From the IMG/VR virus record IMGVR_UViG_3300042520_001767, positions 96,001-160,000 of that record: a DNA stretch of 64,000 bases; one strand, given 5' to 3'. The translations under genes were made by a program, and so were the position numbers. The stretch comes from a virus. Below, in pieces: positions 35,601 to 56,888 of the stretch (positions within the stretch are counted from its first letter, which is position 1; every line of letters begins with the position of its first letter). The notes below the pieces were generated by a model. That model was not told the origin of the DNA. It saw nothing but the letters and a program-made list of their open reading frames with translations, and searched no databases.

Positions 35601-37058
35601 AACATGGTCTTTATTAGTTATTATTGACGACTCCGAAGTTTTTCGTATTTCTTTTTTTACGTGTGAAATAATTCCAAAATTTAAAAGTAATGTTTGTAAA
35701 GTTTTAATTAATTTTTTTGATGTACTAGAATATTTAATATCTTTTATTGTTGACATTCCATCCCCATCAAACATACCTTGTAAAAAATTAACGATAACTT
35801 CTTTAGACATTTTGAGTATTGATAGCGGTATCTCTTTATCTCTAGCGTTATGTTTTTTAAGTCCAAACTCTTCAAACCATTGTACCAATTCAGTTGAGTG
35901 ATACATATAATGCCTATCATCTACTTTCTTAAACCCATTACCTAATTTAGCTATATCATTTATTAAAAAATTAGTTATCTGCGCATCAACATTAGTTATC
36001 GTTATACCTCTACTGGTAAAATTACCCTCAGCAACAAATAAACCTAACAAATAACAAAAATCTAAATTATCTGATAAGTTTAATGGTATATTAATGTTTT
36101 TTTGGTTGTAATTAACTCTATCAAATGAAAAATCAAATTTACTATCTTGCCCAAAATAATTTTGGTTATAATTAATAATTGGTTTATCACCGACAACTAA
36201 TTCATTCATTCGTACCCAAACTTCTTCACCATTTCTATTAATTAATAACGGATGTTTCCAACTACCCTCTAACTCTATACCTAATTTTGTTTTTATTTTA
36301 AAGGTTTCACCATACTCACTTACAAATGTTTGAGTTGCTGGTGTTAAAACACCATCTTTATTACAAACCATGTGTGGTACGTCTAAATCAGTAAACCCTA
36401 ATTTATCTTTTTCAGTAACCAATTCATCCAACTCAACTAAACCGTTTTCGGTTAATATTAACGAGTCTTTAGTTAAACAACCTAACGCAGTAAGTGCAGC
36501 ACCAAATACTTCAGCACCATTATCAATATATGCAGCCTCATCCATGATAAGGAATGTAGGTGTAAATCCCCTCAAAGCATCTTTAGATGTTGCTACTGCT
36601 TTTACACGACTACCGTTAGGTAATTTAATCTCTTTCTTTGAATCTGTAAGGAAAATTGATTTACCTTCGTTTTTAGGGTTACCATAATATTCATGACCCC
36701 ATACCCATCTAGGTAATTGATTTAGAAAATCTTTAATCTTAGCCAAGAACTCAAAAGCTAACTCTTGTTTATTGGCAATAATCAGAATGTTTTCTGGGTT
36801 ATCAGAATCAGCAAAACCAACCTTTATTGACATATACGCAGCTGTTGTTGTTGATACCCCAGCCTGTCTAGGTTTTGTTACAATATTAAAACGGTTTTTT
36901 TCGTATGCTGTGATAATCTCTCTCTGTCTAGGGAATAATCTAAATGGTACAAAACCCTCTTGAGTTTTATCAAACGTTTCCAAATAGGTTTCAATTGCAT
37001 AAGTCGGTTGAGTTAGACATCTAGCGTATTCTTTAAATATCTCGTTAGTTGTAAGCAT
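32613..37058 (-). CDS. terminase large subunit (T4 gp17-like) with two inteins
   Basis: KPRQAGVST Walker A, RGFTPTFLIMDEAA, reconstituted ISTPNG, GIDVSRGDGEDSS and HDDLIMS; mature length about 585 aa from the ATG at 37058. Confidence 0.92.
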   Translation of the reverse strand: MLTTNEIFKEYARCLTQPTYAIETYLETFDKTQEGFVPFRLFPRQREIITAYEKNRFNIVTKPRQAGVSTTTAAYMSIKVGFADSDNPENILIIANKQELAFEFLAKIKDFLNQLPRWVWGHEYYGNPKNEGKSIFLTDSKKEIKLPNGSRVKAVATSKDALRGFTPTFLIMDEAAYIDNGAEVFGAALTALGCLTKDSLILTENGLVELDELVTEKDKLGFTDLDVPHMVCNKDGVLTPATQTFVSEYGETFKIKTKLGIELEGSWKHPLLINRNGEEVWVRMNELVVGDKPIINYNQNYFGQDSKFDFSFDRVNYNQKNINIPLNLSDNLDFCYLLGLFVAEGNFTSRGITITNVDAQITNFLINDIAKLGNGFKKVDDRHYMYHSTELVQWFEEFGLKKHNARDKEIPLSILKMSKEVIVNFLQGMFDGDGMSTIKDIKYSSTSKKLIKTLQTLLLNFGIISHVKKEIRKTSESSIITNKDHVCTIYNLKIYSDHAIKFYDEIGFRLDRKQKNKQYLIGKKLNSRFIDVPQKTILKILDKNGLTKSKFRFLERFWVSKYERLSYESLNRLMIEIPNDMDLLGLYEQIKNNEKYYIDEIIEINNGEDYTYDLHVPETNSFISNGVVSHNTGGRATLISCVTKDTFVFTNEGVKEVSEFIDESKGDNPNLGYNIQDYSIQGLFKTRTSNLFVNNGLQETIKLESTSGSIEGTHTHKLWCYSKIDNKFDWYEMSQLNEGDYINIQSGFELWGNYDEIGFEYKESNKEHNIPKDKFNKITTDLAYLIGLYISEGSVYKTIDKNNNHIGTSITITCGDDVSEAITNCGFKYSSHDNLHYTIGSKYLGSLLEHLGFDLTKKANEKIIPSRLLKMSRENIIAMLQGIMDGDGYSDSVRGRIGINMSSKRLVEQIRMLFLNFGILTDYNEGVTPITKKVKVTSNFYRISAISNNAKKYYNLIGFRFKRKQNKSLSLPIFNNDNQSEFIPNGKRIIREIIDDFNLVRKLSGTGLKVNDLHLSLKNKTYDLNKNKFIKFINYFENVLLLDLSQYNIDKILLLNGKWEKIKNISHSKNKTYDFSLPNDETDFWCHSVIYNGILGHQTPNGMDSLYYKTYDQAKNKKNNFNIVEMKWYEDLRYNKDLSWLKDDQVEREYEFTFESYTKKIEDGWKPTSTWYEQMCMGMNNDAKMIAQELDVSFIGSGGNVINEEYIEFHEKNNVKEPKYTAGLEQEIWVWEEPQEGHQYIAGIDVSRGDGEDSSTIVIVDFTTMEQVMEYQGKIQPDLLAQIVEEYGNLYKAYSVVDVTGGMGVSTVLKLLEFEYKHLHYDDTNGKILSARQRELTSYNKQNKIPGFHATNVRLPMISNLEYKIRTNGIKIRSSRLISEMKTFIYKNGRPDHMEGYHDDLIMSLGMALWVMEHSFKNLERLEKQTKAILSSWLSTSNPSSTVTTINPETKQVEKKINPNHSAYKNVQDPRGEYAWLFGKR
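33765..35138 (-). mobile_element. intein 2 of TerL (458 aa, LAGLIDADG, ends in His-Gln)
   Basis: LIS|CVTKDT...LIGLYISEG...MLQGIMDGDG...NGILGHQ|TPNG. Confidence 0.9.
35166..36479 (-). mobile_element. intein 1 of TerL (438 aa, LAGLIDADG)
   Basis: TALG|CLTKDS...LLGLFVAEG...FLQGMFDGDG...NGVVSHN|TGG. Confidence 0.92.
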
Positions 37059-37111
37059 ATTCTTTTTAGTAATAAATATGCAGAAATCAACTAAAAACAT
37101 TTAATCAAATA

Positions 37112-42939: not shown

Positions 42940-43179
42940 TTAATTTGGTAAATTAGATGCACAACAATCACCATCACAACCAAAACCACAAAAATCATTT
43001 GGTGTTAATTCAATATTGTTTTTACTAAAATATTGTCCAAAAAATATTAACCTCTCATTTAATTCAATTTCTGAATCAAAAAACTCTAAAAATGGTTGTC
43101 CACTTTCAATTATTTGATTATCTTTTAATTCCCCATAAAGGAAAACATCTAATTCATTATGTGTAAAAAAATATCTCAT
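42940..43179 (-). CDS. small hypothetical protein with Cys-rich tail
   Basis: ATG at 43179 overlapping the upstream stop; C-terminal FCGFGCDGDCC. Confidence 0.45.
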   Translation of the reverse strand: MRYFFTHNELDVFLYGELKDNQIIESGQPFLEFFDSEIELNERLIFFGQYFSKNNIELTPNDFCGFGCDGDCCASNLPN

Positions 43180-45419
43180 TATATTATCCCTCCATCTATT
43201 ATTGTCCAATTGTTAGGTGCTGATATTAAAACAGCTCTAGCTGATAACGCAGCGTTTGTGTATTTAATAGTTCCAAAATTAATAACTAAATTTGGTTTAA
43301 CTGGTCTAGATGCCCAACCTATTAATAAAGAATCATAATTTGTTGTTGAGTAATCGTTAAATGTTTTCCCTTCCATAAAATTAGTAGTAGTGGTTGAAAA
43401 CGAAGTTACTCCACTAACAACCCAATTATTAATTGGTTGGTCAAAACCAGTTGCGTAATAAAAACAACTTGACATACCAGAAACTGATTTTGTATCCCAT
43501 GAGTTTATTGGTTGGTTAAAATTATTTTGGTTAAAATAAATGGAATTTATGTTAGTCACCTTACTTGTATTCCAGTTTTTAATACTATCTGAACCACCAT
43601 TATTAAAACTACCATAATCAAATTTAACACCAAACATAAACGACATACTAGTAACATTTGAGGTACTCCACGCACTATATGTAACACCACTAATTGTAAC
43701 TAACTTAGTTCCAATATCTTGATTGAAATTATTACAACCATAAAACATTGTTTGCATTGTTGTCACCTTACTTGTATTCCAGTTTTTAATACTATCTGAA
43801 CCACCATTATTAAAACTACCAATCATATTAAGGTTATTACTAAACATAAACGACATACTAGTAACATTTGAGGTACTCCACGCACTATATGTAACACCAC
43901 TAATAGTAACCATCTTGGTTCCAATATCTTGATTGAAATTTGGTTGACTTTGGAACATCGTTTGCATTGTTGTTACTTTACTTGTATTCCAATTTTTAAT
44001 ACTATCTGAACCACCATTATTAAAACTACCATTAGTTGTAGACCCACCATTAAACATAGTTGACATATTAGTGACATTACCCACATCCCATGCACTATAT
44101 GTAACACCACTAATTGTAACTAACTTAGTTCCAATATCTTGATTGAATTTTGGTTGATTTTGAAACATTGTTTGTGTTGTTGTTACTTTACTTGTGTTCC
44201 AATTTCCAATATTTTGGTTAAAATTACCTATATTTGTTGTTGTATTAGCAAATATAAATGCCATACTAGTGACATTAGCCACATCCCAAGCAACATATGT
44301 TACATCATTTATACTAACTAATTTAGTTGATAAATCTTGATTGAAATTTACTTGATTTTGGAACATCGTTTGTATTGTTGTTACTTTACTTGTATTCCAA
44401 TTTCCAATATTTTGGTTAAAAGCACCAAAATTCGGTCCTATAATACCAAACACAAACGCCATACTAGTAACGTTAACAACATCCCAAGCAACATATGTCA
44501 TACCATTTATTGTAACTAATTTAGTTGATAAATCTTGATTGAAATTTACTTGATTATAAAAAGTACCGTACAGGGTCGTTACTTTAGTTGTGTTCCATTT
44601 ACTGATATCTTGGTTAAAAAGACCACGACCAGTTGTTATAAAAAAAGTAGCGTTAAGTGTTATAACATTACTTATATTCCAATTACTTATATCTGAATTA
44701 AAACTAATACTATCAGAAAATGTTGCGTCTAAACTTGTTATGTTTGAAACATCCCATTCATTACTTCTATTTATTGTAGTTATGGCTAAACAACCTCTAA
44801 ATGAACCAGCTAGTGTTGTTGTATCAGTTAAATTTAAAACATCACTAACATTATTTAATGTTAAATTAGCACAACCATAAAAATGTTGGTCTGTTGCACC
44901 TAATCTAAAACTATTTCCCCATTGAGTTATCGCTATTAATTTTAACCTATCACCAGTGTTAGCAAATCTCCATCCATTACATACCCCAGTTATTTTTATT
45001 TGATAAATACCAGGTAAACTATAAGTATGTGTGGTTTCAGCTTGATTCCATGAAGTTATTTTACTACTGGTTCCATCACCCCATTCAACAATAAATCTAT
45101 AAGTACCTGTCGATATTAATGGTAATCTTATTTGTGTTGCGGTTGAACTACCAGCACTGGTGTTATTAGTTAACCATGTTGATATAAAACTTTTTCCAGA
45201 TTCAAACCATGGTCTTTCACCACCTAAATAACAACCAGTAGTTGCACTTATTGATTTAACAATAAGTGAAAAACTAGAATATGGTGAAACATTAACTAAA
45301 ACGTTATTCACGTTCATTGTACAACCAGACGAACCTCCAAGTATTTCAGTGTAATTTAAATCGTATAATTCACCATCTTCAGCTGGAACAACGAAACTAT
45401 GTGCATTTATATTTGGCAT
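43179..45419 (-). CDS. PKD-like domain + DUF285/BspA-type repeat protein (probable virion surface or adhesion protein)
   Basis: VEWGDG...THTY..PG.Y PKD motif; repeated FNQDI..WNTSKVT.M..MF units; NYDSLLIGWA cap. Confidence 0.75.
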   Translation of the reverse strand: MPNINAHSFVVPAEDGELYDLNYTEILGGSSGCTMNVNNVLVNVSPYSSFSLIVKSISATTGCYLGGERPWFESGKSFISTWLTNNTSAGSSTATQIRLPLISTGTYRFIVEWGDGTSSKITSWNQAETTHTYSLPGIYQIKITGVCNGWRFANTGDRLKLIAITQWGNSFRLGATDQHFYGCANLTLNNVSDVLNLTDTTTLAGSFRGCLAITTINRSNEWDVSNITSLDATFSDSISFNSDISNWNISNVITLNATFFITTGRGLFNQDISKWNTTKVTTLYGTFYNQVNFNQDLSTKLVTINGMTYVAWDVVNVTSMAFVFGIIGPNFGAFNQNIGNWNTSKVTTIQTMFQNQVNFNQDLSTKLVSINDVTYVAWDVANVTSMAFIFANTTTNIGNFNQNIGNWNTSKVTTTQTMFQNQPKFNQDIGTKLVTISGVTYSAWDVGNVTNMSTMFNGGSTTNGSFNNGGSDSIKNWNTSKVTTMQTMFQSQPNFNQDIGTKMVTISGVTYSAWSTSNVTSMSFMFSNNLNMIGSFNNGGSDSIKNWNTSKVTTMQTMFYGCNNFNQDIGTKLVTISGVTYSAWSTSNVTSMSFMFGVKFDYGSFNNGGSDSIKNWNTSKVTNINSIYFNQNNFNQPINSWDTKSVSGMSSCFYYATGFDQPINNWVVSGVTSFSTTTTNFMEGKTFNDYSTTNYDSLLIGWASRPVKPNLVINFGTIKYTNAALSARAVLISAPNNWTIIDGGII
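43530..44620 (-). repeat. tandem coding repeats of about 198-210 bp
   Basis: The WNTS/TKVT anchor recurs at 43561, 43768, 43978, 44188, 44386 and 44584 (spacings 207, 210, 210, 198, 198) with near-identical DNA. Confidence 0.85.
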
Positions 45420-45875: not shown

Positions 45876-47120
45876 CTAGTTACTTAAAGGTGCCTTTATT
45901 GTCGGATGTGATTGATAACCTTCAATTTTAAAATCATCATTATCTAAATGACCAATCAAAGATAAATCATTACCTAACTCTTTAAAGAACTCATCAGTTT
46001 TCATAAATACCAGTTTTGGTAATGGAAAAGGTTCTCTTGTTCTTTTTGGTATTTTCAAGGTATCATCAATATAACTCATACCAATACTTGTTTGATGTTT
46101 AAGGTTACCATTAATTTCTTCAGCTAAACGTACTCTTTCACTTAGCGTATACTCTCTTCCAATCTGTTCTTTTGCTTGTTCAATATGGTTTGAATACAAA
46201 TGAACATCACCCAAATTACCAATCAATTCATCTGGAATCATATTAACTGATTTTGCAATGATTTCTAATAACAATCCATAAGATGCAATATTGAATGGTA
46301 AACCTAAGAATGTATCTACTGAACGTTGATTCCACATTAATGAGATTGCTCTGGTTGGAATGTTTGCTTCATCAAAATGAAATTGTTTAAAGTTTATTGC
46401 TGTTATATGATTTTGTAATACTCTACCTCCAATATTTGAATTTTTATAAATCTCAAATCTTTCATCGTGACTTAACTCTCTTGTATAAACTTGAAACGAA
46501 AAATGGCATGGCGGCAACGTCATTTGGTCTAATTCTCCAACATTCCAAGCATTAACCATCAAACGTCTTGAGTCTGGATTTGTTTTAAGTTCGTTGATTA
46601 GGTTTTGGATTTGGTCTATTTGTGTTTCATCATATACACCATGAAGATATTTGTGTGGTTTTATGTTTTTCACCTTTCTCCATTGCTTACCATACACGGG
46701 ACCAAGTTCACCCCACTTCTTAGCAAACTCATCATCTGTTTTGATTTTGTTGATGAACTCTTCTTGCCCCGTTAAAGCAAACTTATAGAGTCTATTTGGA
46801 TATTTTTCTTTAAGTTTTTTAAACTCAGACATTTCATGCTTATGATAAGCTTTCAGAGCATCACCATTCCAAATATGACAATTATTATCAACCAAATACT
46901 TAATATTTGTATCACCTCGTAAGAACCAAAGAAGTTCTGTTACGATTGTTTTGAATGGCATTTTTTTGGTGGTGAGTAATGGAAAATTATTACCATTAAA
47001 CTTAAACCTAATAGTTCTACCAAATACTGATAGTACCTTGCCGTTTCTAGTTTCCTTCTCAATCCCATTTTCTAATATATCCTTTAATAGGTTTGTGTAA
47101 TCCTTATCTAGTTTATTCAT
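45876..47120 (-). CDS. thyA: thymidylate synthase
   Basis: FPLLTTKK, ELLWFLRG, LGPVYGKQWR, PDSRR, LPPCH, QRSVDTFLGLPFNIASY and DVHLYSNH. Confidence 0.95.
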   Translation of the reverse strand: MNKLDKDYTNLLKDILENGIEKETRNGKVLSVFGRTIRFKFNGNNFPLLTTKKMPFKTIVTELLWFLRGDTNIKYLVDNNCHIWNGDALKAYHKHEMSEFKKLKEKYPNRLYKFALTGQEEFINKIKTDDEFAKKWGELGPVYGKQWRKVKNIKPHKYLHGVYDETQIDQIQNLINELKTNPDSRRLMVNAWNVGELDQMTLPPCHFSFQVYTRELSHDERFEIYKNSNIGGRVLQNHITAINFKQFHFDEANIPTRAISLMWNQRSVDTFLGLPFNIASYGLLLEIIAKSVNMIPDELIGNLGDVHLYSNHIEQAKEQIGREYTLSERVRLAEEINGNLKHQTSIGMSYIDDTLKIPKRTREPFPLPKLVFMKTDEFFKELGNDLSLIGHLDNDDFKIEGYQSHPTIKAPLSN

Positions 47121-47580
47121 TTACAATTTCTGTTTTTTTAGTTGTTATTTTTTCAAATGTTGAAATCTTGCCTTTCAATTCACTCAATGAAGTTGTAGTT
47201 ATGTTACCATTTTTAAAATAGTCACTGATGATATCGCTCATCGTTTGTAGTATTTCTTTTGTTGCAGAATCTGGTGTGATTTCATCTTCAGTTTCAACTT
47301 TCAAATCAGCAACTTCTTTTAAAATTTCAGTTGTGTCAATTTTATCCAATTTACTACTAGTATATTTTTTAATGTTTGTGTTTAATACAGAACCTTGACT
47401 ATCAGCAGTTTCAAAACGCATGTAATCAGTTTTTGCGACATCAGTATATTTGTACTGACCACCATGGTTAAAGATAATTGTTAATTCGTTTGTAATATTG
47501 TTGTACACTGAAGCACAAATGTTTGATGAAGAATAAATCGCTTTAATTATACCATCCTTTTCTTTTCTTTTTAAAATCAT
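47113..47580 (-). CDS. KTSC domain protein
   Basis: SSNICASVYNNITNELTIIFNHGGQYKYTDV...ADSQGS. Confidence 0.75.
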   Translation of the reverse strand: MILKRKEKDGIIKAIYSSSNICASVYNNITNELTIIFNHGGQYKYTDVAKTDYMRFETADSQGSVLNTNIKKYTSSKLDKIDTTEILKEVADLKVETEDEITPDSATKEILQTMSDIISDYFKNGNITTTSLSELKGKISTFEKITTKKTEIVNE

Positions 47581-47601
47581 TTTTCTTTTTTATTTATGTT
47601 A

Positions 47602-47844
47602 TTATAATTTACTATAAGTTTTATAAGCACTTATTTCACTTAAATGAAATATTTCACCAATTTCATTAACGTGTTCCAGTGTTTTACCGTATCGTTTAGT
47701 TGTTATCACAAAATAATCACCAGTAATAACTAAACTAGCATCTAAAAATTGCAATTTAGTCAAAGAAGGTGATTGTGTATCGTTAATTCTATTTTTAAAT
47801 AATACTTCAATCTTTGCAAATATTGTTTCGTCATTTGTTTTCAT
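47602..47844 (-). CDS. hypothetical protein
   Basis: 80-aa ORF with an upstream promoter. Confidence 0.5.
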   Translation of the reverse strand: MKTNDETIFAKIEVLFKNRINDTQSPSLTKLQFLDASLVITGDYFVITTKRYGKTLEHVNEIGEIFHLSEISAYKTYSKL

Positions 47845-47860
47845 ACTTTACTTTTTTATT

Positions 47861-47891
47861 CAAAAATACTAATATTTATTTTAAAAATCAA
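47861..47891 (-). promoter_or_regulatory. Bacteroidota housekeeping-sigma promoter (leftward)
   Basis: TTG-N20-TATTTTTG. Confidence 0.6.
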
Positions 47892-47893
47892 TG

Positions 47894-47924
47894 TTGCATT
47901 GATAAATAATTTTTAGTACATTTG
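47894..47924 (+). promoter_or_regulatory. Bacteroidota housekeeping-sigma promoter (rightward, clpC-N)
   Basis: TTG-N20-TACATTTG. Confidence 0.65.
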
Positions 47925-47950
47925 CTAAATAAACTTTAAAACAAAATTAT

Positions 47951-48769
47951 ATGAATAGAGAGATTTATCCAAAAGTTAAAATAATTATGACGAATTCAAT
48001 TAAAGAAGCCAAAAACTTTGATGATGTAAAAGTTAGACCAGAACATATTATTTTATCTATGTTATTAGATGACGATAATGAATGTGTGAAAACACTTAAA
48101 AAACTAAAAATAGATACTACAGAACTTTATGATAAATTATCTGATTACGTTAGAAAAAATGATTTAACACCTAGAGCGTATACCTCAGTAAAACGAACAC
48201 TACCTTTTTCTGAAGAAACCAAATCAATAATAGCTAAAGGTGTTGATAAAGAATGTGAAGGGTTAAATGATACCATGATTGACACAACACATATCATGTT
48301 AGCTATTTTAATAACTAAACAACCAGTTGTTGATTTTTTAAATTCTGTAGGGGTGAATTATAATTTATTTAAAATAACTATGATAGGAAACAAACCAGAA
48401 GACATCAAAAACGGTGCATTAGGTGATGACATGAATGAAGAAAATGATTCATTCAAAAAGAAACAAAAACCAATCGACCCAAAAAGTAAAACACCAGTTC
48501 TGGATAATTTCTGTAGAGACGTGTCTAAAGCTGTTGAAAAAGGGGAGATTGACCCAGTTGTTGGTAGAACTACCGAAATAAAACGTGTTTCTCAAATCCT
48601 TTCTAGAAGAAAGAAAAATAACCCAATCCTTATCGGTGAACCAGGTGTTGGTAAATGTTTTATTGGTGATACTCAGGTAGTTATGAGGAATGATTTAACT
48701 GGTGAAGTTTTTAAAGCTACTATAAATGAATTCCTAAAAACGTTTACCGATACCGAAACAACAAATTAA
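47951..48769 (+). CDS. clpC: ClpC/ClpB AAA+ chaperone, N-terminal fragment fused to split intein IntN
   Basis: Clp N-domain repeats (PEHIILS, TTHIMLA), LDNFCRD, DPVVGR, RRKKNNPILIGEPGVGK, then C-F-I-G-D-T-Q-V. Confidence 0.9.
   Translation: MNREIYPKVKIIMTNSIKEAKNFDDVKVRPEHIILSMLLDDDNECVKTLKKLKIDTTELYDKLSDYVRKNDLTPRAYTSVKRTLPFSEETKSIIAKGVDKECEGLNDTMIDTTHIMLAILITKQPVVDFLNSVGVNYNLFKITMIGNKPEDIKNGALGDDMNEENDSFKKKQKPIDPKSKTPVLDNFCRDVSKAVEKGEIDPVVGRTTEIKRVSQILSRRKKNNPILIGEPGVGKCFIGDTQVVMRNDLTGEVFKATINEFLKTFTDTETTN
48656..48766 (+). mobile_element. split intein N-fragment (37 aa)
   Basis: CFIGDTQVVMRNDLTGEVFKATINEFLKTFTDTETTN-stop, directly after the Walker A Lys. Confidence 0.85.
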
Positions 48770-48778
48770 ACAATTATT

Positions 48779-48823
48779 ATTTATCTTTCTTGTAAATTCT
48801 TTATATTTATAAGAAAGATAAAT
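48779..48823 (+). promoter_or_regulatory. 13-bp hairpin enclosing TATTTATA and covering the endonuclease translation-initiation region
   Basis: ATTTATCTTTCTT (48779-48791) pairs with AAGAAAGATAAAT (48811-48823); ATG at 48831. Confidence 0.6.
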
Positions 48824-48830
48824 TTAAAAT

Positions 48831-50264
48831 ATGAAAATAAAATATAAAAAAAATGGTAATTTTGAAATAGAGTTTACTGATTATTTCAAAACTATTGATG
48901 ATTTAAAAGAATTTATTAAAAAAAATAATAAGTTTGTTAATGTTGAAAACATAGAATTAAAAATAATAAATGTATATAACGAATTAGCTAATTTAGATGT
49001 TAGTATTAAATCTAGTATTTTAGGTTGGACAGTTATTAAACAATTTAAATTTAAATATGTTAGACCAAACAATATTAATTTCTGGTTAGAAAGGGGTTAT
49101 GGTATTGATGAATTTAATCAATATAATAATTCATTAATTAATGAATTATGCGATATAAATAACAATAAATTCAAATTTAATAATTTTAAATTTGAAATGA
49201 TTGGTATACCTAAATGTAAACTTTGTGGGTCTAATTTAAAAATAGAACCATCTATTGGTCGTTATAATATTATTTGTTGTTTGAACAGTGAGTGTGATAC
49301 TAATAAACATAAAGAAATTGAATCAATTAGTCATTTAAGTTTTTTACCTATTGATATGTTTTTGAATAAAAATAAACGAATAAATATAACTAGCAAAATT
49401 AATAAAGAATATTGGTTATTGAATGGTTATACATATCTTGATTCAATCAATAAAGTTAAGGAAATAAAGAATAATTTAAAATTAGTAAATGTTAATAGTT
49501 TTGAGTATTACAAAACAACAACAGATAAAACAGATGATGAGATAAGAAAAACAATCAAAGAGATGTCATCATTATGTGTTGAATATTGGTTAGAAAAAGA
49601 TATAACATTAGAAGAGGCTAAAAATAAAATATCTAACTTACAAAAAATAAATTCAAATAAAATAATCAAAAAAAGAAAAGAAAATCCAGAACAATATTCA
49701 GCAACAACTCAAACACAAATTGGTTATTGGTTGAATAAGGGTTTTAGTGAAGAAGAAAGTAAAATAAAATTATCTGAAAGACAAACAACTTTTAGTCTTG
49801 AAAAATGTATTCAAAAATATGGTGAAACAAATGGTTTAAAAAGATTTAATGAAAGACAAAAAAAATGGTTATTGAACAATAAAAGAAACAATTTCTCTAA
49901 AATATCACAAGATTTATTTTGGGATATTTTAGAATCGGATAAATCAATAAGTGATAATGAGATATATTTTGCGACATATAATAATGGTGAAAAAAACAAT
50001 AGTGGGAAAAATCATGAATATCGATTAGACGTAATTGAAAGTTATATACTACCAGATTTTTTTGATAAAACAACTGGGAGAATAATCGAATTTGATGGAA
50101 CTTATTATCATAGGTTAACTCCAGAAAATTCATTAAGAGAGGAAAAAAGAGATAAAATGATAATTAAATCTGGTTATGAAGTGTTACATATTAGTGAATT
50201 AGATTATAAAAATAATAAACAAGAAATAATAGACAAATGTGTTGCGTTTCTAAATAAAAAATAA
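48831..50264 (+). CDS. free-standing Vsr/DUF559-like putative homing endonuclease
   Basis: C-terminal PDFFDK...IIEFDGTYYH...KRD...GYEVLHISE; four (F/Y)WLxxG-like repeats; CKLCG..C..C zinc-binding motif. Confidence 0.75.
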   Translation: MKIKYKKNGNFEIEFTDYFKTIDDLKEFIKKNNKFVNVENIELKIINVYNELANLDVSIKSSILGWTVIKQFKFKYVRPNNINFWLERGYGIDEFNQYNNSLINELCDINNNKFKFNNFKFEMIGIPKCKLCGSNLKIEPSIGRYNIICCLNSECDTNKHKEIESISHLSFLPIDMFLNKNKRINITSKINKEYWLLNGYTYLDSINKVKEIKNNLKLVNVNSFEYYKTTTDKTDDEIRKTIKEMSSLCVEYWLEKDITLEEAKNKISNLQKINSNKIIKKRKENPEQYSATTQTQIGYWLNKGFSEEESKIKLSERQTTFSLEKCIQKYGETNGLKRFNERQKKWLLNNKRNNFSKISQDLFWDILESDKSISDNEIYFATYNNGEKNNSGKNHEYRLDVIESYILPDFFDKTTGRIIEFDGTYYHRLTPENSLREEKRDKMIIKSGYEVLHISELDYKNNKQEIIDKCVAFLNKK

Positions 50265-50295
50265 TAACTTTACAAAAATAAAAATAAAAATAAAT

Positions 50296-50700
50296 ATGAT
50301 TAACGAATTTAAAAAAATAACAAAATCATTTGATATGAGTGATTTTAGTATCTTAACTGATACTGGTTTTGAAAAATTAGAAAAATTACATGAAACAATT
50401 CCATATGATGTATATCATCTTAAATTGGCTGATGGTAAAGAATTAAAATGTGCTGATAATCATATCGTATTTATTCAAGAATATGATGAATCAACAATGG
50501 AACCAATCTTTTTAAAAGAAATTTTTGTTAAAGATTTACCTAAACATTCATTTATTATGGTGTCTGATGATAATGGTAATTTAAGTGAATCTGAAGTTGT
50601 TGAAATAACCAATTTAGGTTATGAAGAAATCATGTATGATTTTGAATTAACTGAATCATCAAATAGACGTTATTTCACAAACGGAATTTTATCACATAAT
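50296..50700 (+). mobile_element. split intein C-fragment (135 aa)
   Basis: ILTDTGF, block B KCADNH, block F MYDFEL and block G YFTNGILSHN, followed by the +1 Thr. Confidence 0.88.
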
Positions 50701-52506
50701 ACATCTATCGTTGAAGGTTTGGCTCAAATAATACACGAAGGTAACGCACCTAGAACACTTATTGGTAAACGTATCTATGCGTTAGACTTATCTAGCATTG
50801 TTGCTGGTACAAAATACCGTGGACAATTTGAAGAAAGAATGAAAGCAATTCTAGAAGAATGTAAAGCTAACCCAGATATCGTATTATTTATCGATGAATT
50901 ACATACAATCATTGGTGCTGGTAACGCTTCTGGTTCTCTGGATGCTGCAAACATCTTCAAACCAGCATTGGCTCGTGGAGAACTTCAAGTAATTGGTGCA
51001 ACAACACTTGATGAATACAGAGAAAATATTGAAAAAGATGGTGCTCTAGTTAGACGTTTTCAACAAGTGCTTATTGAAGAACCAACATTAGACGAAACAA
51101 AAATTATTCTTAATAATATCAAAGAAAAATACGAGAAACATCATAGAGTTAAATATACTGACGAAGCTATTGAAGAATGTGTTAAATTATCAGCTAGATA
51201 TATAATGGATAGAAGTATGCCAGATAAAGCTATTGATGTTTTAGATGAAGCTGGTGCAACAACTAATATTAGTGTTGAAAAACCAGATAATATCAAAGAA
51301 TTAGAGAATAAAAGAACTGAAATTAATGAAAAGAAAAAAGAAGTAGTTGTTAAACAGAAATACGAAGAAGCAGCAAAGCTTCGTGATGAAGAGAAAAAGG
51401 TTACAATTGAGTTAGAAAAAGCGATGACTGATTGGCAATCTAAATTAGATAATAACGTTACTACCGTAGGTGTTGAAATAATTTCAGAGGTTGTATCTAT
51501 GATGACTGGAATCCCTCTAACGAAAATATCTACTCAAGAGACAAAAAGACTTATGAGTTTGGATAAAGAACTCATGGGTAAAGTTATTGGACAAGACGAT
51601 GCAGTTGCCAAGGTTGTAAAAGCAATAAAACGTAATCGTATTGGAATCAAAGATAAAAATAAACCTGTAGGTAGCTTTATTTTCCTAGGTCAAACAGGTG
51701 TGGGTAAAACGCTGTTAGCCAAGCTTTTAGCTGAACAAGTATATGGAGATTCTGATTCATTAGTAAGAATGGACATGTCTGAATATATGGAGAAACATTC
51801 TGTATCAAGACTTATTGGTCCACCTCCTGGGTATGTTGGGTATGACCAAGGTGGTCAATTAACTGAGAAAGTTAGACGTAAACCACATTGTGTTATTTTA
51901 TTTGATGAGATTGAAAAAGCACATGACGATGTATTTAACTTGTTATTACAGTTATTAGATGAAGGTATGCTTACAGATGGTCTGGGTCGTAAAGTTAATT
52001 TCAAAAACACTCTTATCATTCTAACATCAAATATTGGTGTTAGAGAAGTTAACACTTTTGGTAAAACTATGGGTTTCGAAACAGCTGAAAGTATTGTAAA
52101 TGAAGAAAACAGAGCTCGTTCAATTATTGAAAAAGCTTTGAAGAAAAAATTCAAACCAGAATTCCTAAACCGTATTGATGAAGCAATTGTATTTAGAAGT
52201 TTAACTGAAGAAGATATACATAAAATCATCTATTTAGAAATTGAAAGCTTACAAAAACGTGTAATTGAAATGGGGTATAACCTAACAGTAACAAAAGAAG
52301 CTATTGAATTTTTAGGTAAACAAGGTTATGATGAAGCTTATGGTGCTAGACCACTAGCCAGAGCTATCCAACATTATGTTGAAGATAAAGTAGCTGATGA
52401 GATACTAAACGAAAACATAAAAGAAGGTGAAACGATAGAAGTTTCATTCGATACTAAAAACGAAGAATTGGTTATTAAACCAATTAAAACTAAAAAAATT
52501 AAATAA
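50296..52506 (+). CDS. clpC: split intein IntC fused to the ClpC/ClpB C-terminal fragment
   Basis: After SHN: TSIVEG, GTKYRGQFEER, LFIDELH, KPALARG, PDKAIDVLDEAG, second Walker A GQTGVGKT, GYVGY, LFDEIEKAH and GARPLAR. Confidence 0.92.
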   Translation: MINEFKKITKSFDMSDFSILTDTGFEKLEKLHETIPYDVYHLKLADGKELKCADNHIVFIQEYDESTMEPIFLKEIFVKDLPKHSFIMVSDDNGNLSESEVVEITNLGYEEIMYDFELTESSNRRYFTNGILSHNTSIVEGLAQIIHEGNAPRTLIGKRIYALDLSSIVAGTKYRGQFEERMKAILEECKANPDIVLFIDELHTIIGAGNASGSLDAANIFKPALARGELQVIGATTLDEYRENIEKDGALVRRFQQVLIEEPTLDETKIILNNIKEKYEKHHRVKYTDEAIEECVKLSARYIMDRSMPDKAIDVLDEAGATTNISVEKPDNIKELENKRTEINEKKKEVVVKQKYEEAAKLRDEEKKVTIELEKAMTDWQSKLDNNVTTVGVEIISEVVSMMTGIPLTKISTQETKRLMSLDKELMGKVIGQDDAVAKVVKAIKRNRIGIKDKNKPVGSFIFLGQTGVGKTLLAKLLAEQVYGDSDSLVRMDMSEYMEKHSVSRLIGPPPGYVGYDQGGQLTEKVRRKPHCVILFDEIEKAHDDVFNLLLQLLDEGMLTDGLGRKVNFKNTLIILTSNIGVREVNTFGKTMGFETAESIVNEENRARSIIEKALKKKFKPEFLNRIDEAIVFRSLTEEDIHKIIYLEIESLQKRVIEMGYNLTVTKEAIEFLGKQGYDEAYGARPLARAIQHYVEDKVADEILNENIKEGETIEVSFDTKNEELVIKPIKTKKIK

Positions 52507-52508
52507 AT

Positions 52509-52540
52509 AAAAAATCCCACAATTTTTGTGGGATTTTTTT
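52509..52540. terminator. rho-independent terminator after clpC
   Basis: AAAAAATCCCACAA-TTT-TTGTGGGATTTTTT. Confidence 0.75.
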
Positions 52541-52553
52541 ATATTTATAATAT

Positions 52554-53447
52554 ATGATAAAGAAACAATTATTAGAAAAATATGGTGAATATTTGGACCA
52601 ATTAGATATTAGTGAAAATAAAACTAGTATAAAATTATCTATGATTAAAGTTAAACAAGAATATAGGTACAATAAAAATAATTATGGTAATAACCTTAAA
52701 ATAGGTTCTAAAATTATGTTTGATTTAATCAATTATGCTGATGATAATAAACAAATAGTTACTTTAACACCAGATAATGTAGATGGTGTTGGTGTAAATA
52801 CATTAATACAATTTTATAAAAAATTTGGTTTTAAAATGAATAAAGGTTATAATAAAAATTTTGAATATAGTGATACAATGATTCGCTACCCAAAATTACA
52901 AGGCATGCGTGAAAATATGAAAATAAGAATAAAATCACTTCTTAGGGAAGCGTTAGATAAAACAATTACATGTAATAAATGTGGTTGGAAATGGAAACTT
53001 AAAGATGGTGGCGATGACCCTTACGTTTGTCATAAATGTCACCCTGAGAATATAACAAAAGAATCGATTAATGAGGCTTTACTAACTAGGGATAAAAAAC
53101 ACATTAAATCTGTTGCTGATTTTGTAAATTTTGCAAAAGAAAATTTAGGTATTGATGATGATATTAAAGTTGAATTGGCTTTTGAAAGAACCTCAGACTT
53201 AAAAACAACAGCTTATTATGACGCTGCTAATAACAAAGTAAAGGTTTATGTTAAAAATAGAGCTATTGTTGATATAATCAGAAGTTTGGCGCACGAACTT
53301 GTCCATCACAAACAAAATATAGAAGGGAGAATAACAAACACAGAAATCGATGGAGCTGATGGTAGCGATATAGAAAACGAAGCGAATGCAGTTGCGGGTA
53401 TACTAATAAGAAAATGGGGTAGACTCCACACAGAAATATATGATTAA
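52554..53447 (+). CDS. modular protein: GNAT-like + zinc ribbon + HExxH metallopeptidase
   Basis: TLIQFYKKFGF (GNAT C-terminal motif), internal MKIRIKSLLRE, CNKCG...CHKC and RSLAHELVHHKQ. Confidence 0.6.
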   Translation: MIKKQLLEKYGEYLDQLDISENKTSIKLSMIKVKQEYRYNKNNYGNNLKIGSKIMFDLINYADDNKQIVTLTPDNVDGVGVNTLIQFYKKFGFKMNKGYNKNFEYSDTMIRYPKLQGMRENMKIRIKSLLREALDKTITCNKCGWKWKLKDGGDDPYVCHKCHPENITKESINEALLTRDKKHIKSVADFVNFAKENLGIDDDIKVELAFERTSDLKTTAYYDAANNKVKVYVKNRAIVDIIRSLAHELVHHKQNIEGRITNTEIDGADGSDIENEANAVAGILIRKWGRLHTEIYD

Positions 53448-53751
53448 TATGAAAAATAACTTAAAAGGTGGAAAAGCAGATGAAATGACACCTAAAAAAA
53501 TTTCGGATAAATTCGATGTTTCAGTGAAAGATGTCAATAAACAAATTGAAAAAGGAAAGAAAGTTGAATCAGAACATACTGATGATGAAGAAAAACAATT
53601 AGAAATTGCCTCTGACCATTTAACTGAATTTCCAGATTATTATGATAGAATAGAAAAAATGGAAAAAGAAGCCAAAAAACACTGGGCTAATAAAAAAATA
53701 ACAAACGAAAGTAAAAAATTTATTAAAAAATTACTTAGAGAAAACTTATAA
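53440..53751 (+). CDS. DUF5661-like protein
   Basis: GKKVESEHTDD...IASDHLTEFPDYYDRI; ends KKFIKKLLRENL. Confidence 0.6.
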   Translation: MINMKNNLKGGKADEMTPKKISDKFDVSVKDVNKQIEKGKKVESEHTDDEEKQLEIASDHLTEFPDYYDRIEKMEKEAKKHWANKKITNESKKFIKKLLRENL

Positions 53752-53779
53752 AAAAAGGACCTATTTTTGGTCCTTTTTT
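53751..53779. terminator. bidirectional terminator between convergent genes
   Basis: AAAAAAGGACC-7 nt-GGTCCTTTTTT. Confidence 0.75.
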
Positions 53780-54255
53780 ATTTCACCTATAAACTCATAA
53801 CTCCCACATAATCTTTTATTGTCATAAATATGATTTTTGTATGTATTTTTTTCATTAACATCATACCTATTTTTTTTATGTTTACTAGTATGTTTCCATA
53901 ATGGTGATTTATCTCTGTAATTAATTAATCTAGGGTGACTAGTTCTAGAGAAAAATCTATGGTCTTGGTTAATATGTATTTGTGCAATTGCGTCAGAAAA
54001 CCTTACTCCCAACCCCATTCCTTGATAATCTGGAAGTATACAAATACGATGACCACGCCACGCATTTTTAAGCGTACCACTAGGCATTGTTATAGCGGCA
54101 CCAAATGCAACCACATTACCTTCCCATACCCCAATATAACATCTGGAAGCTTTGTTTATATTTCCATCTAAATAGTGATGGTCTTTAAACATTCCCCAAC
54201 TATCATAGTTTGTGCGATATATGTCAATTTTGATTTCTGGTCGGGCAAAAAAAAA
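53761..54255 (-). CDS. GNAT acetyltransferase domain, -1 frame continuation of the ABC ATPase
   Basis: The frame is open from the T9 run: FFFARPEIKIDIYRTNYDSWGMFKDHHYL...RICILPDYQGMGLG. Confidence 0.7.
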   Translation of the reverse strand, partial: FFFARPEIKIDIYRTNYDSWGMFKDHHYLDGNINKASRCYIGVWEGNVVAFGAAITMPSGTLKNAWRGHRICILPDYQGMGLGVRFSDAIAQIHINQDHRFFSRTSHPRLINYRDKSPLWKHTSKHKKNRYDVNEKNTYKNHIYDNKRLCGSYEFIGEIKKDQK

Positions 54256-54857
54256 CCGTCCAAGAATTCTCCCGTATCAGTATTTATAACCCAATCTGGT
54301 TCTAACCATTCTAAAATGTCACTATGACATGTAGATATGACAATATTTTTTAAATCATTATTATTTATGTACCTAGCTAAAGCCATAGAAGCCGATTTAG
54401 CGACAATTCTATCAACGACTGAGGTATACTCATCTATCACCACATTTGATTTAATCTTACGAGCTAAATCAGCTCTAAATTTCTCACCGTTGGATAATAC
54501 ATGATAAGGTTTATACCATGATGGTATAGAATTGAAACCAACTGAACTTAATCTGTTAATCCCATCTTCTGGATTATCAAAATGTGATATTACTGATTTA
54601 TTTGAATTCCATTCTGGTTGTTCTTCAATACCAAATTGTTTAAGTATTGTAGATTTACCACTACCAGAACTACCGACAATTACACCAATTTTAAAATCTT
54701 TAGGTAATTTAGTGGGTAAAGCCCATGGATAAAATGTTGACGTTCCATCGAATATACAATCGAATGCTGTTTCACTTGCTTCTATAAATTCATCACGCTC
54801 AACTGACGAGGTTAAAGGTTTTTTTTCTCTTTGTAATTTTTCTATAATTTTTCCCAT
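54168..54857 (-). CDS. soluble ABC-type ATPase
   Basis: GSSGSGKS, LSNGE, VVIDE and STCH; ATG at 54857 (MGKIIEK) follows the TATTTATA motif. Confidence 0.85.
   Translation of the reverse strand: MGKIIEKLQREKKPLTSSVERDEFIEASETAFDCIFDGTSTFYPWALPTKLPKDFKIGVIVGSSGSGKSTILKQFGIEEQPEWNSNKSVISHFDNPEDGINRLSSVGFNSIPSWYKPYHVLSNGEKFRADLARKIKSNVVIDEYTSVVDRIVAKSASMALARYINNNDLKNIVISTCHSDILEWLEPDWVINTDTGEFLDGFFLPDQKSKLTYIAQTMIVGECLKTITI
54247..54255 (-). other. candidate -1 frameshift site (U9)
   Basis: GGT TTT TTT TTG on the coding strand, an X XXY YYZ heptamer; the -1 frame has a TGA a few codons upstream. Confidence 0.6.
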
Positions 54858-54894
54858 CTGATATTTATTATAAATATCAGAAAAAAAACAAAAA

Positions 54895-54934
54895 AAAAAG
54901 TTAGGTTGATAAAATTTTATCAACCTAACTTTTT
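54895..54934. terminator. 40-bp perfect palindrome, probable terminator
   Basis: AAAAAGTTAGGTTGATAAAA|TTTTATCAACCTAACTTTTT. Confidence 0.6.
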
Positions 54935-54955
54935 AATATCTTTAAGATAAAAATA

Positions 54956-55174
54956 TTATTTTTTACCTTCAGTTAATGTTTTGAATTTAGCCTCTAACGC
55001 AGCAATTTTACCTTCTAAAACAGATGTTTTATTAGTTTGTTTTTTTGCTTGTTCATTAAGCCATTCTTGTTTTTTAACCGCAACAGCTTCATTTACAATG
55101 TTATCGATTAAATCTACTAAGTCAGATTCTTTAATTTTAACTGTTTTTTTTGCAACTGGTTTCATGTTTGACAT
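54956..55174 (-). CDS. small protein with KIKESDL..LIDNIVNEA leader-type motif
   Basis: 72-aa coiled-coil ORF preceded by the TATTTATA motif. Confidence 0.55.
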   Translation of the reverse strand: MSNMKPVAKKTVKIKESDLVDLIDNIVNEAVAVKKQEWLNEQAKKQTNKTSVLEGKIAALEAKFKTLTEGKK

Positions 55175-55245
55175 ATTTTTAAATTTTATATAAAAGCTTA
55201 TTTATATATAAATATAGAATAAAATAGAAAAAGTTTATATGTTTA

Positions 55246-55410
55246 TTATTTTTTTGTTGTTTCCACTTTAATTACGTCAAATAAATGTAATAATGTATAC
55301 CTATCAAAGTTTTTTTTAAAACAAAAAATGTTAATTGCGTCTTCAAAACTATTAGCTGAAATAGTTGTTATCGGTTCCCCCGATTTGTTTAATAATGAAA
55401 ATTTACTCAT
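55246..55410 (-). CDS. small hypothetical protein (not in the ORF track)
   Basis: MSKFSLLNKSGEPITT...KVETTKK, 54 aa. Confidence 0.4.
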   Translation of the reverse strand: MSKFSLLNKSGEPITTISANSFEDAINIFCFKKNFDRYTLLHLFDVIKVETTKK

Positions 55411-55437
55411 GGTTGATTATTATTTAAATTTGTTATT

Positions 55438-56844
55438 TTATATAAAAGTACTCGGTAATAATTGTTTTAATTTTTTATAGTTTTCAATACCTATATCCTC
55501 TTCTTTAATAGCGATTCTATCTAAAGAACCACCGTTTGATTTATCCAAATAAGTGATATCATTAGGTATATCCTTAATTGGGTTACCAATAAGATTCAAA
55601 AACTTTAAGTTTTTTAGTAACCCAATCTCTTTTGGTAAAGAGATAATGTCATTTTCAGGTAATGATACCATCTCAAGATTAGTTAACTTACCAATTGAAG
55701 GGTGAATTTCAGCCATTTTAGCTTTACAAATAATTAGTTGGTCTAGTTTACTAAACTTACTAATATCTGGCATTTTTGGTATTTCTCGCTTCATAAATAT
55801 TATTGTTGGTGTTTCCTCATCTATCAAATCAAATAAGCTATCGGTAAAACCAAATTTAATTAAATAATCTAGATATTTGTTGTTATCTAAACCTTTTTTA
55901 TTTTCTTTAGCCATACCAATTAATTCCTCATAAAAAAAATTGCTGATACCCTCACTTTTAGATAATACCTCATCAATAATGTTAACATTATTACCGTTTT
56001 GTTTATTCTTTAATTGGTTTGTCTCAAAGTGAATCTGATATAACTCTTGTGTTTCACCTAAAAATAATTTATTTGGTATTATTATATAAATATCAGATTT
56101 TTTTCCGTTTGGTTTTCTATTATCAGTATAACTTTTAAACATACCGTTACCTTTTCTAGCTGTACACCAGTTAGCAAAGTTTTCGAAAATAACACTTGCT
56201 TCTGTTGTCTTAGGTATAAATAACGTAAAATTTCTATCCCTAACTGGTATTTCAGCTTGCCCAATATCAACAAATCTACGTAATGTTCTCTCCAAAGCAC
56301 TTGGTTCCTTTTCAATAAAAGGGTCAACCGAATCAAACAACTGAGATAAAGATTTGTATTGGTTGATATCTGTTGGGTCGGTTACGTCTTTTAAAATGTA
56401 ACTACCCTTACACAACTCTTTGAATTTTCTTTTTCTTTTATTATCTTCAAAAATAGTCAAGTATTTATTTGCTTGCGGTAAATCTTCAACCACTAATCTA
56501 GTTGCTATCTCAATACTATTTTCATCTTTGTTTTTTAATAAACGAACGAATAAGTTTAACATCCATTGAATATACATTTTATTATCACTTGGGTCAGCAG
56601 AAATAATATCAGAAAAAACACCAGAACAAATGCTAATCATTTGTAAAACACGTTCCTTTTCATTTACCTTTTCAGACAAAATAGCTAACACAACACCAGT
56701 ACCAGAGGTTATCACTTTTGGTGAATAACCATTCTCAACTAATGATGATAATTTACTGTCAACATTATTTTCACTATCACATTCAAATACATCGAATGTT
56801 TTAGCTAAAAATGTTAACCTATCTTTAATGTTTATTTTCCCCAT
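55438..56844 (-). CDS. leucine-rich-repeat protein with N-terminal WCT-motif domain
   Basis: LTNLEMVSLPENDIISLPKEIGLLKNLKFLNLIGNPIKDIP (LxxLxLxxNxLxxLP); ANWCTA...YQIHFE domain. Confidence 0.7.
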   Translation of the reverse strand: MGKINIKDRLTFLAKTFDVFECDSENNVDSKLSSLVENGYSPKVITSGTGVVLAILSEKVNEKERVLQMISICSGVFSDIISADPSDNKMYIQWMLNLFVRLLKNKDENSIEIATRLVVEDLPQANKYLTIFEDNKRKRKFKELCKGSYILKDVTDPTDINQYKSLSQLFDSVDPFIEKEPSALERTLRRFVDIGQAEIPVRDRNFTLFIPKTTEASVIFENFANWCTARKGNGMFKSYTDNRKPNGKKSDIYIIIPNKLFLGETQELYQIHFETNQLKNKQNGNNVNIIDEVLSKSEGISNFFYEELIGMAKENKKGLDNNKYLDYLIKFGFTDSLFDLIDEETPTIIFMKREIPKMPDISKFSKLDQLIICKAKMAEIHPSIGKLTNLEMVSLPENDIISLPKEIGLLKNLKFLNLIGNPIKDIPNDITYLDKSNGGSLDRIAIKEEDIGIENYKKLKQLLPSTFI

Positions 56845-56857
56845 ATTATTTTTGTTA

Positions 56858-56888
56858 CAAATATACTTAAAAAATAACAGTTTATCAA
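56858..56888 (-). promoter_or_regulatory. Bacteroidota housekeeping-sigma promoter
   Basis: TTG-N20-TATATTTG upstream of the LRR gene. Confidence 0.65.

Follow-up and report, generated by a model that had tools for sequence, protein, structure and literature searches.

A clpC-like phage gene that is probably fractured by an atypically split intein, with a free-standing, putatively Vsr-like endonuclease gene between its halves

Fractured genes (Dassa, London, Stoddard, Schueler-Furman & Pietrokovski, 2009; PMC2677866) are phage genes that occur as two adjacent open reading frames (ORFs), each with one half of a split intein, with an endonuclease gene in the gap. The hosts described in that work are DNA synthesis and repair enzymes and terminase, and Clp is absent from the text; a break after intein block A was seen once, in terminase; hairpins were found upstream of the endonuclease in 15 of 16 loci; and the 3′ end of the endonuclease gene overlaps the downstream gene in 15 loci, a feature that is not universal. 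Papers on atypically split inteins concern the TerL and PolB inteins, and the prototype of the EDxHD family of homing endonucleases is I-Bth0305I (Taylor et al., 2011; PMC3239194). Here we describe a clpC-like gene at 47951-52506 in a stretch of 64,000 nucleotides (nt) of the virus record IMGVR_UViG_3300042520_001767. The whole stretch is referred to as the window, and all coordinates are positions in it. We interpret the gene, with a probability of about 0.85, as a case of what Dassa et al. (2009) call a fractured gene, combining an atypically split class-1 intein with a free-standing Vsr-like homing endonuclease.

The ORF listing gives three ORFs on the + strand at this locus. They lie in three different frames (start positions modulo 3 are 2, 0, and 1), each with its own ATG and stop, and are separated by 61 nt (ORF1 to ORF2) and 31 nt (ORF2 to ORF3). 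The features are listed below with the evidence for each; lengths are in amino acids (aa), IntN and IntC are the two intein fragments, D1 and D2 are the two AAA+ modules, and a slash marks a junction.

47951-48769, + strand: ORF1, 272 aa
47951-48655, + strand: ClpC N-extein, 235 aa, with Clp_N and the start of D1 up to Walker A GEPGVGK (ORFs, Pfam, NCBIfam)
48656-48769, + strand: IntN, 37 aa from Cys1, with block A only, plus stop codon (ORF motifs)
48779-48823, + strand: perfect 19-bp hairpin between the ORF1 stop and the nuclease ATG (folding against shuffles)
48791-50246, + strand: nuclease cassette as an indel, absent from sister contig L018 (alignment to the sister contig)
48831-50264, + strand: ORF2, free-standing putative homing-endonuclease gene, 477 aa (Pfam, profile and fold search)
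50296-52506, + strand: ORF3, 736 aa
50296-50700, + strand: IntC, 135 aa, with block B KCADNH, block F MYDFEL...RRYFTNG and block G ILSHN (motifs, PDB match)
50701-52506, + strand: ClpC C-extein, 601 aa, from Thr+1 (TSIVEG), with the rest of D1, a UVR-like middle, D2, and D2-small (Pfam, NCBIfam)
51688-51711, + strand: D2 Walker A GQTGVGK/T, an unoccupied site with its junction at 51708/51709 (comparison with the sister contig)

In ORF1, GEPGVGK occupies residues 229-235 and is followed by the Cys-initiated 37-aa tail and the stop. Pfam and NCBIfam find Clp_N and the start of D1 in ORF1, and in ORF3 a weak Intein_splicing match (E 3.5e-5) followed by AAA_lid_9, AAA_2, and ClpB_D2-small. The first 135 residues of ORF3 end in GILSHN, and the next residue is Thr. 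The two exteins add up to a predicted spliced ClpC of 836 aa (235 + 601). A preliminary description of the locus, made from the sequence alone, had proposed this arrangement, and the ORFs, motifs, and Pfam matches agree with it throughout: ClpC in two ORFs, the first running to Walker A and a Cys-initiated tail and the second beginning with blocks B, F, and G before Thr and the rest of ClpC; a 477-aa nuclease gene between them in a third frame; a GK/T split of the D1 Walker A; block A alone in IntN; and the total of 836 aa. Clp_N, two AAA+ modules with Walker A and B, and D2-small were all found, the Walker A of D1 being whole only after splicing. The Walker B of D1 is DELH, in the C-extein, and FDEIEK is also present. 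The match to the UVR middle domain is weak (19.3 bits, below the Pfam cut-off of 21.5), and an MGF tripeptide stands at the position of the [LIV]-G-[FL] docking loop of ClpA/ClpC, to which it may correspond in meaning.

An arrangement of this kind could in principle arise by an assembly or sequencing artefact, with frameshift errors in a single gene, or the parts could be joined at the RNA level by a self-splicing intron. These are general possibilities, and that is what can be said for them. We consider them highly improbable, given that the ORF1 sequence is found on 11 contigs, that independent contigs have the same stops and starts, and that intein motifs flank the break at the protein level. 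Splicing of RNA was considered separately and rejected: a search of 47500-53000 against Rfam found no group I or group II intron, its only two rows being at chance level.

Related phage ClpC genes have uninterrupted D1 sites that line up with the predicted spliced junction, so that taking out the 37 + 135 residues would leave an ordinary Walker A. Such intein-free alleles had been suggested as a check on the locus and are present in three relatives: in L009 the site reads GAPGVGKTSIVEGLA (GAPGVGK-TSIVEGLA), and L008 and the megaphage record LR745206.1 (L001) are likewise uninterrupted at D1, with GVGK-SSI(V/A)EG. The nearest solved sequence to IntC is 6DSL_B, the CatC half of the consensus atypically split intein Cat (E 4.4e-6), with gp41-1 next, which bears out an earlier comparison of the locus with fractured phage genes and TerL-type atypically split inteins. 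The alignment to 6DSL_B is in register and begins at residue 13 of both proteins, indicating the same break point. The break falls between blocks A and B, leaving a short IntN and a long IntC on separate ORFs, and relatives have the same break.

A search of metagenome sequences for ClpC inteins, as had been proposed, gave 386 database clusters matching the IntC region at E ≤ 1e-3. The family is far larger than could be expected by chance. Conservation in IntC was assessed on the best 120 of these clusters together with the window (121 sequences), and that in IntN on 37 N-halves of the D1 site. KCADNH, YD, TNG, and LSHN are at least 98% conserved among the 121, G(I/V)LSHN/T is found in all of the best 120, and HN/T in 121 of 121, the window reading MYDFEL...RRYFTNGILSHN/T across blocks F and G. 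Cys1 comes directly after GEPGVGK, and Cys is found in 37 of 37 N-halves, in which IntN is 28-42 aa long (median 33). The split intein is real, well formed, and probably active.

Purifying selection is seen in every part of the ClpC gene. The ratio of nonsynonymous to synonymous rates (dN/dS), calculated against the sister contig L018, is 0.02-0.11 for the exteins (N-extein 0.11, C-extein 0.02) and 0.10-0.23 for the intein fragments (IntC 0.10, IntN 0.23). These values argue against a decaying pseudogene, in which insertion of the nuclease would have broken a once-contiguous intein and left non-functional pieces. A selfish nuclease could inactivate a gene in this way, and the contiguous allele of the D1 intein, which was looked for as proposed earlier, was found in none of the best 120 of the 386 IntC clusters. 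The three ORFs are nevertheless intact, and the split itself persists, both with and without the nuclease, across hundreds of diverged clusters. Decay is thus very unlikely.

IntC and IntN were modelled as two chains in three runs with three controls, our own small alignments being supplied. The interface score ipSAE was 0.77 in all three runs, compared with 0.02 for the best of the three controls; a mark of 0.77 is reached by 58 of 80 solved complexes and by 2 of 110 mismatched pairs, a calibration that is only roughly valid with alignments of our own. Contacts agreed between runs to at least 69%, and the predicted local distance difference test (pLDDT) score of the partner was at least 68. 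In the models, the IntN residues near Cys1 are predicted to contact blocks B, F, and G. The predicted docking shows likeness to the solved split-intein complexes (6DSL, gp41-1), and may reflect memory of them.

Under the fractured-gene interpretation, the intein would lie between the Lys and Thr of the D1 Walker A and be split after residue 37. ORF1 and ORF3 would be translated separately, and the 37-aa IntN would dock as β-strands on the 135-aa IntC to complete the HINT fold. Cys1, the block B His, the block F Asp, the His-Asn of block G, and Thr+1 would then carry out protein trans-splicing, restoring GEPGVGK-TSIVEG and giving the 836-aa ClpC. Trypsin would cut a GVGK-TSIVEG junction peptide at the junction Lys.

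The halves might instead associate through the intein fragments with no splicing, or with cleavage only, in which case ClpC would work as two chains held together non-covalently, or function would reside in the halves alone. The complex model speaks to docking alone, and the replacement of the block B Thr by Ala would suit such an outcome. Without splicing, however, 172 residues would separate the Lys and Thr of the P-loop, which should abolish nucleotide binding by D1. Furthermore, invariance among the 121 IntC and 37 IntN sequences extends to Cys1, the penultimate His, the terminal Asn, and Thr+1, residues whose only importance is to splicing. We therefore regard this outcome as unlikely.

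The C-terminus of the ORF2 protein matches DUF559 in Pfam (22.0 bits, cut-off 20.6). A zinc-ribbon-like CxxC motif is found in its N-terminal region together with four helical YWLxxG repeats, and a putative Vsr-like (EDxHD-type) catalytic domain occupies approximately residues 396-477 (window 50016-50261). Ten relatives of the nuclease align, sharing an ERQTTFS...KYGE...FNERQKKW module, repeated YWLxxG(Y/F)SxEEA helices, and the C-terminal catalytic domain. D409, E420, Y425/Y426, and H427 are spaced (11 and 7 residues) as are Asp51, position 62, Phe67/Trp68, and His69 of Vsr, and D441 is aligned with Vsr Asp97 in the profile alignment; position 62 is an invariant Glu in the Vsr-like homing enzymes (Dassa et al., 2009; PMC2677866). 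The profile has only three matches in the PDB, all of them structures of E. coli Vsr (E about 0.4) with the catalytic motifs in register, while as a single sequence against the PDB the nuclease gave chance-level rows only, and PHROGs has no family for it. Foldseek places the catalytic domain of I-Bth0305I (3R3P) first, with probability 1.00, a TM-score by target of 0.68, and E 0.029, followed by Vsr (1CW0, 1VSR); the pLDDT of the model is about 80-90 in the C-terminal domain and 63 for the whole. This likeness in fold fits the Vsr-like nuclease that had been expected between the halves. Measured against a nuclease of L003, dN/dS is 0.32.

The hairpin at 48779-48823 has a folding energy of −18.5 kcal/mol (z −5.98), and none of 200 shuffled sequences folds as well. 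Two other contigs have comparable hairpins, L008 at or across the start of its nuclease gene (z −6.4) and L003 at that of its second nuclease (z −4.3). The hairpins upstream of the nuclease in L010 and of the first nuclease in L003 are no better than shuffles, so that the hairpin is frequent and not universal. A promoter within the hairpin, as in Dassa et al. (2009), is not claimed: the T4 late-promoter box TATAAATA is present only on the minus strand of the hairpin.

Several observations count against the interpretation and have to be weighed. The block B His is present and invariant, and the Thr of TxxH is Ala (C-A-D-N-H), also invariant throughout the family. CatC and gp41-1 have Ser at this position, and the Ala is the sole atypical catalytic position in the intein. 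The Pfam intein match of IntC scores 24.1 bits, short of the gathering score of 35.8 bits, and IntN alone has no match among PDB sequences. The lines of support for the nuclease are individually weak (Vsr profile E about 0.4, Foldseek E 0.029, pLDDT 63), and agree with one another on a Vsr-like assignment. Finally, the 3′ end of the nuclease gene does not overlap the downstream gene as it does in 15 of the loci of Dassa et al. (2009), a 31-nt gap (50264/50296) being found here.

Two sister contigs, L018 and L019, are 91%-95% identical to the window over 46860-56877, and the N-extein is 97.9% identical in amino acids to that of L018. They have no counterpart of window 48791-50246, which comprises the nuclease and most of the hairpin and has TTTCT at both edges. 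Their D1 intein is still split, with the halves 72 nt apart. Loss of the nuclease from L018 by deletion at the TTTCT microhomology, or its gain in the window, may account for this, and the two genomes fit either. The nuclease would have no role in splicing. It most likely cuts nuclease-free alleles, spreading the cassette by recombination, and would be gained and lost independently of the split intein. The presence or absence of the nuclease varies more widely: the D1 site is split without a nuclease, with adjacent halves, in L002, L004, L006, and L018, a relic of the nuclease N-terminus remains in a 424-nt gap in L011, and in L003 both D1 and D2 are split with a nuclease in each.

L018 and L019 also carry about 1.9 kb extra exactly at 51708/51709 (L018 5200-7121), showing that the D2 site of the window is empty. 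In this D2 cassette, a 261-aa passenger ORF without a Pfam match stands between a D2 IntN and a D2 IntC. Of the first 30 nt beyond the D2 junction, 10 are mismatched, compared with 0-3 in the intervals further on, which looks like a co-conversion tract or divergence of the target site. Raised divergence beside the break was rejected as proof of co-conversion, since relaxed constraint on the fragment tails also fits; the contrast in synonymous divergence (dS) is the stronger argument. Between the window and L018, dS is 0.55-0.62 in the intein fragments compared with 0.11-0.20 in the exteins, which suggests that the intein alleles of the two phages have a history unlike that of the host gene.

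The D2 site is the more common location among the 121 IntC sequences: 16 are at D1 (window included) and 105 at the D2 Walker A GK/T, and the D2-site IntC are about 72% identical to that of the window. In a FastTree tree of the 121, a single clade (support 0.85) holds 15 of the 16 D1-site sequences, and the remaining one lies among the D2-site sequences. The protein P0001, whose IntC is 91% identical, has in D2 a third intein, contiguous and of LAGLIDADG type (SRLIG/C...VHN/SPPGYVGY), so that ClpC of such phages has at least three intein insertion sites. Some D2 alleles (P0038, P0052, P0062, P0074, P0091) have an in-frame fusion of a 240-330-aa passenger protein to the IntC N-terminus, so that IntC would bear a large N-terminal appendage; L005 has the same passenger as an ORF of its own.

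Relatives of the nuclease also occur at other split sites, again with a short-IntN half on one side and a long-IntC half on the other: ClpC at D2, the gp44 clamp loader (L010), an SbcC/gp46-like gene (L012), and a RecA/UvsX-like gene (L016), the break in the last three being within or at the P-loop each time. It is possible, and we put it forward tentatively as a somewhat doubtful extension, that one short-IntN split-intein family together with an EDxHD-type nuclease hops between the P-loops of unrelated phage ATPases. The conserved DNA coding for GK[T/S] would be a generic landing site, the hosts would be the ClpC D1, ClpC D2, gp44 clamp loader, SbcC/gp46-like, and RecA/UvsX-like genes, and ClpC might carry the element at neither, either, or both of its sites. 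If so, the window, with D1 occupied, D2 empty, and intein dS 3-5 times that of the host gene, would capture lateral replacement in progress.

The window is AT-rich, with a G+C content of about 27%, and contains T4-like phage genes for the Gp23 capsid protein (23611-25476), the Gp20 portal (29021-32308), and a T4-type large terminase (32613-37100). The longest of the 11 contigs bearing the ORF1 protein of the window has 194,624 bases. The source is a large T4-like phage of at least about 195 kb. The large terminase gene (− strand, 1494 aa) appears to hold two contiguous inteins, Pfam giving two Intein_splicing, two LAGLIDADG_3, and one Hom_end match between Terminase_6N and the C-terminal terminase parts. 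The Gp20 portal (− strand, 1094 aa) has an intein splicing domain at residues 117-531 with an HNH-endonuclease PHROG match inside. With the ClpC intein, the phage thus has at least four inteins within 25 kb. A thymidylate synthase gene at 45876-47120 (− strand, 414 aa) has about 100 residues more than the Pfam model. Its version in L018 (332-2077) has 581 aa, and window 45610-46860 matches only as a 76% patch; the region looks like another polymorphic insertion. Two further proteins are of kinds unusual in a T4-like phage: one of 745 aa made of DUF285 repeats in six stretches (43179-45419, − strand), and one of 467 aa with leucine-rich repeats (55438-56844, − strand).

The sequence TACATTTG, within 47885-47950 and some 30 nt ahead of the ORF1 ATG, is one that we take to fit the Bacteroidota −7 promoter consensus TAnnTTTG. 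None of the three ORFs is preceded by a Shine-Dalgarno-like sequence, and NCBI names one related protein as coming from a Flavobacteriales metagenome-assembled genome. These are hints to the host.

These results extend fractured genes and natural atypically split inteins from enzymes of DNA metabolism and terminase to a motor of protein quality control. They also describe a large natural split-intein family of hundreds of clusters, with an IntN of 28-42 aa, Cys1, and Thr+1, which could be screened for semi-synthetic protein ligation, since chemical synthesis of so short an IntN is feasible. The near-identical sister contig provides natural substrates with and without the insertions, relevant to the target of the nuclease and to whether nuclease and intein move jointly or separately; candidate substrates are the nuclease-free split allele of L018 and the intein-free D1 site of L009.

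In comparison with known systems, the locus resembles the fractured genes of Dassa et al. (2009; PMC2677866) in several ways: a phage gene occurs as two adjacent ORFs on the same strand, one intein half on each; the gap holds a free-standing endonuclease gene, here putatively Vsr-like, whose start is closely preceded by a hairpin; and there are split alleles that have lost the endonuclease. It differs from the hosts described there in being a ClpC/Hsp100 unfoldase, and its break point, after block A, is that of their terminase locus alone.

With the TerL-type atypically split inteins (GOS-TerL, AceL-TerL, Cat, 6DSL) it shares a short IntN with block A only and a long IntC with blocks B, F, and G, and with CatC it shares C(S/A)DNH in block B and TNGI(V/L)SH in block G. 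It differs from them in its host gene and site, an AAA+ P-loop GK/T, in Thr+1, and in the Ala at the block B Ser/Thr position. The IntN of AceL-TerL reportedly has 25 aa and that of GOS-TerL 37 aa, compared with 37 aa here and 28-42 aa in the family.

Like I-Bth0305I (Taylor et al., 2011; PMC3239194), the nuclease is predicted to have a Vsr-like C-terminal fold with D/E/H/D residues and an N-terminal DNA-binding region of repeated modules. A group I intron of recA encodes I-Bth0305I, which has NUMOD motifs, whereas the nuclease described here is free-standing in a split intein and has 477 aa, including a CxxC motif and four YWLxxG repeats with no matching Pfam family.

The novelty of a trans-splicing ClpC, suggested in the preliminary description, stands in part. 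Searches of the open-access literature combining ClpB, ClpC, or ClpA with intein gave only Clp papers without inteins, and no paper on Clp inteins or a Clp split intein was found there; on the other side, the family is abundant in metagenomes. Insertion within Walker A is shared with the P-loop inteins of the RFC small subunit, DnaB, and MCM (Novikova et al., 2016; PMC4760082), and ORF1 is matched over its P-loop and the beginning of the intein by NCBIfam models of RFC with an intein. The inteins of these three proteins are contiguous and found in cellular replication proteins, while the one described here is split and from a phage, and Clp unfoldases are not among the hosts named in the main text of that paper. 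The element is thus of a known kind, and the Clp host protein, which is new for it, appears to be unpublished.

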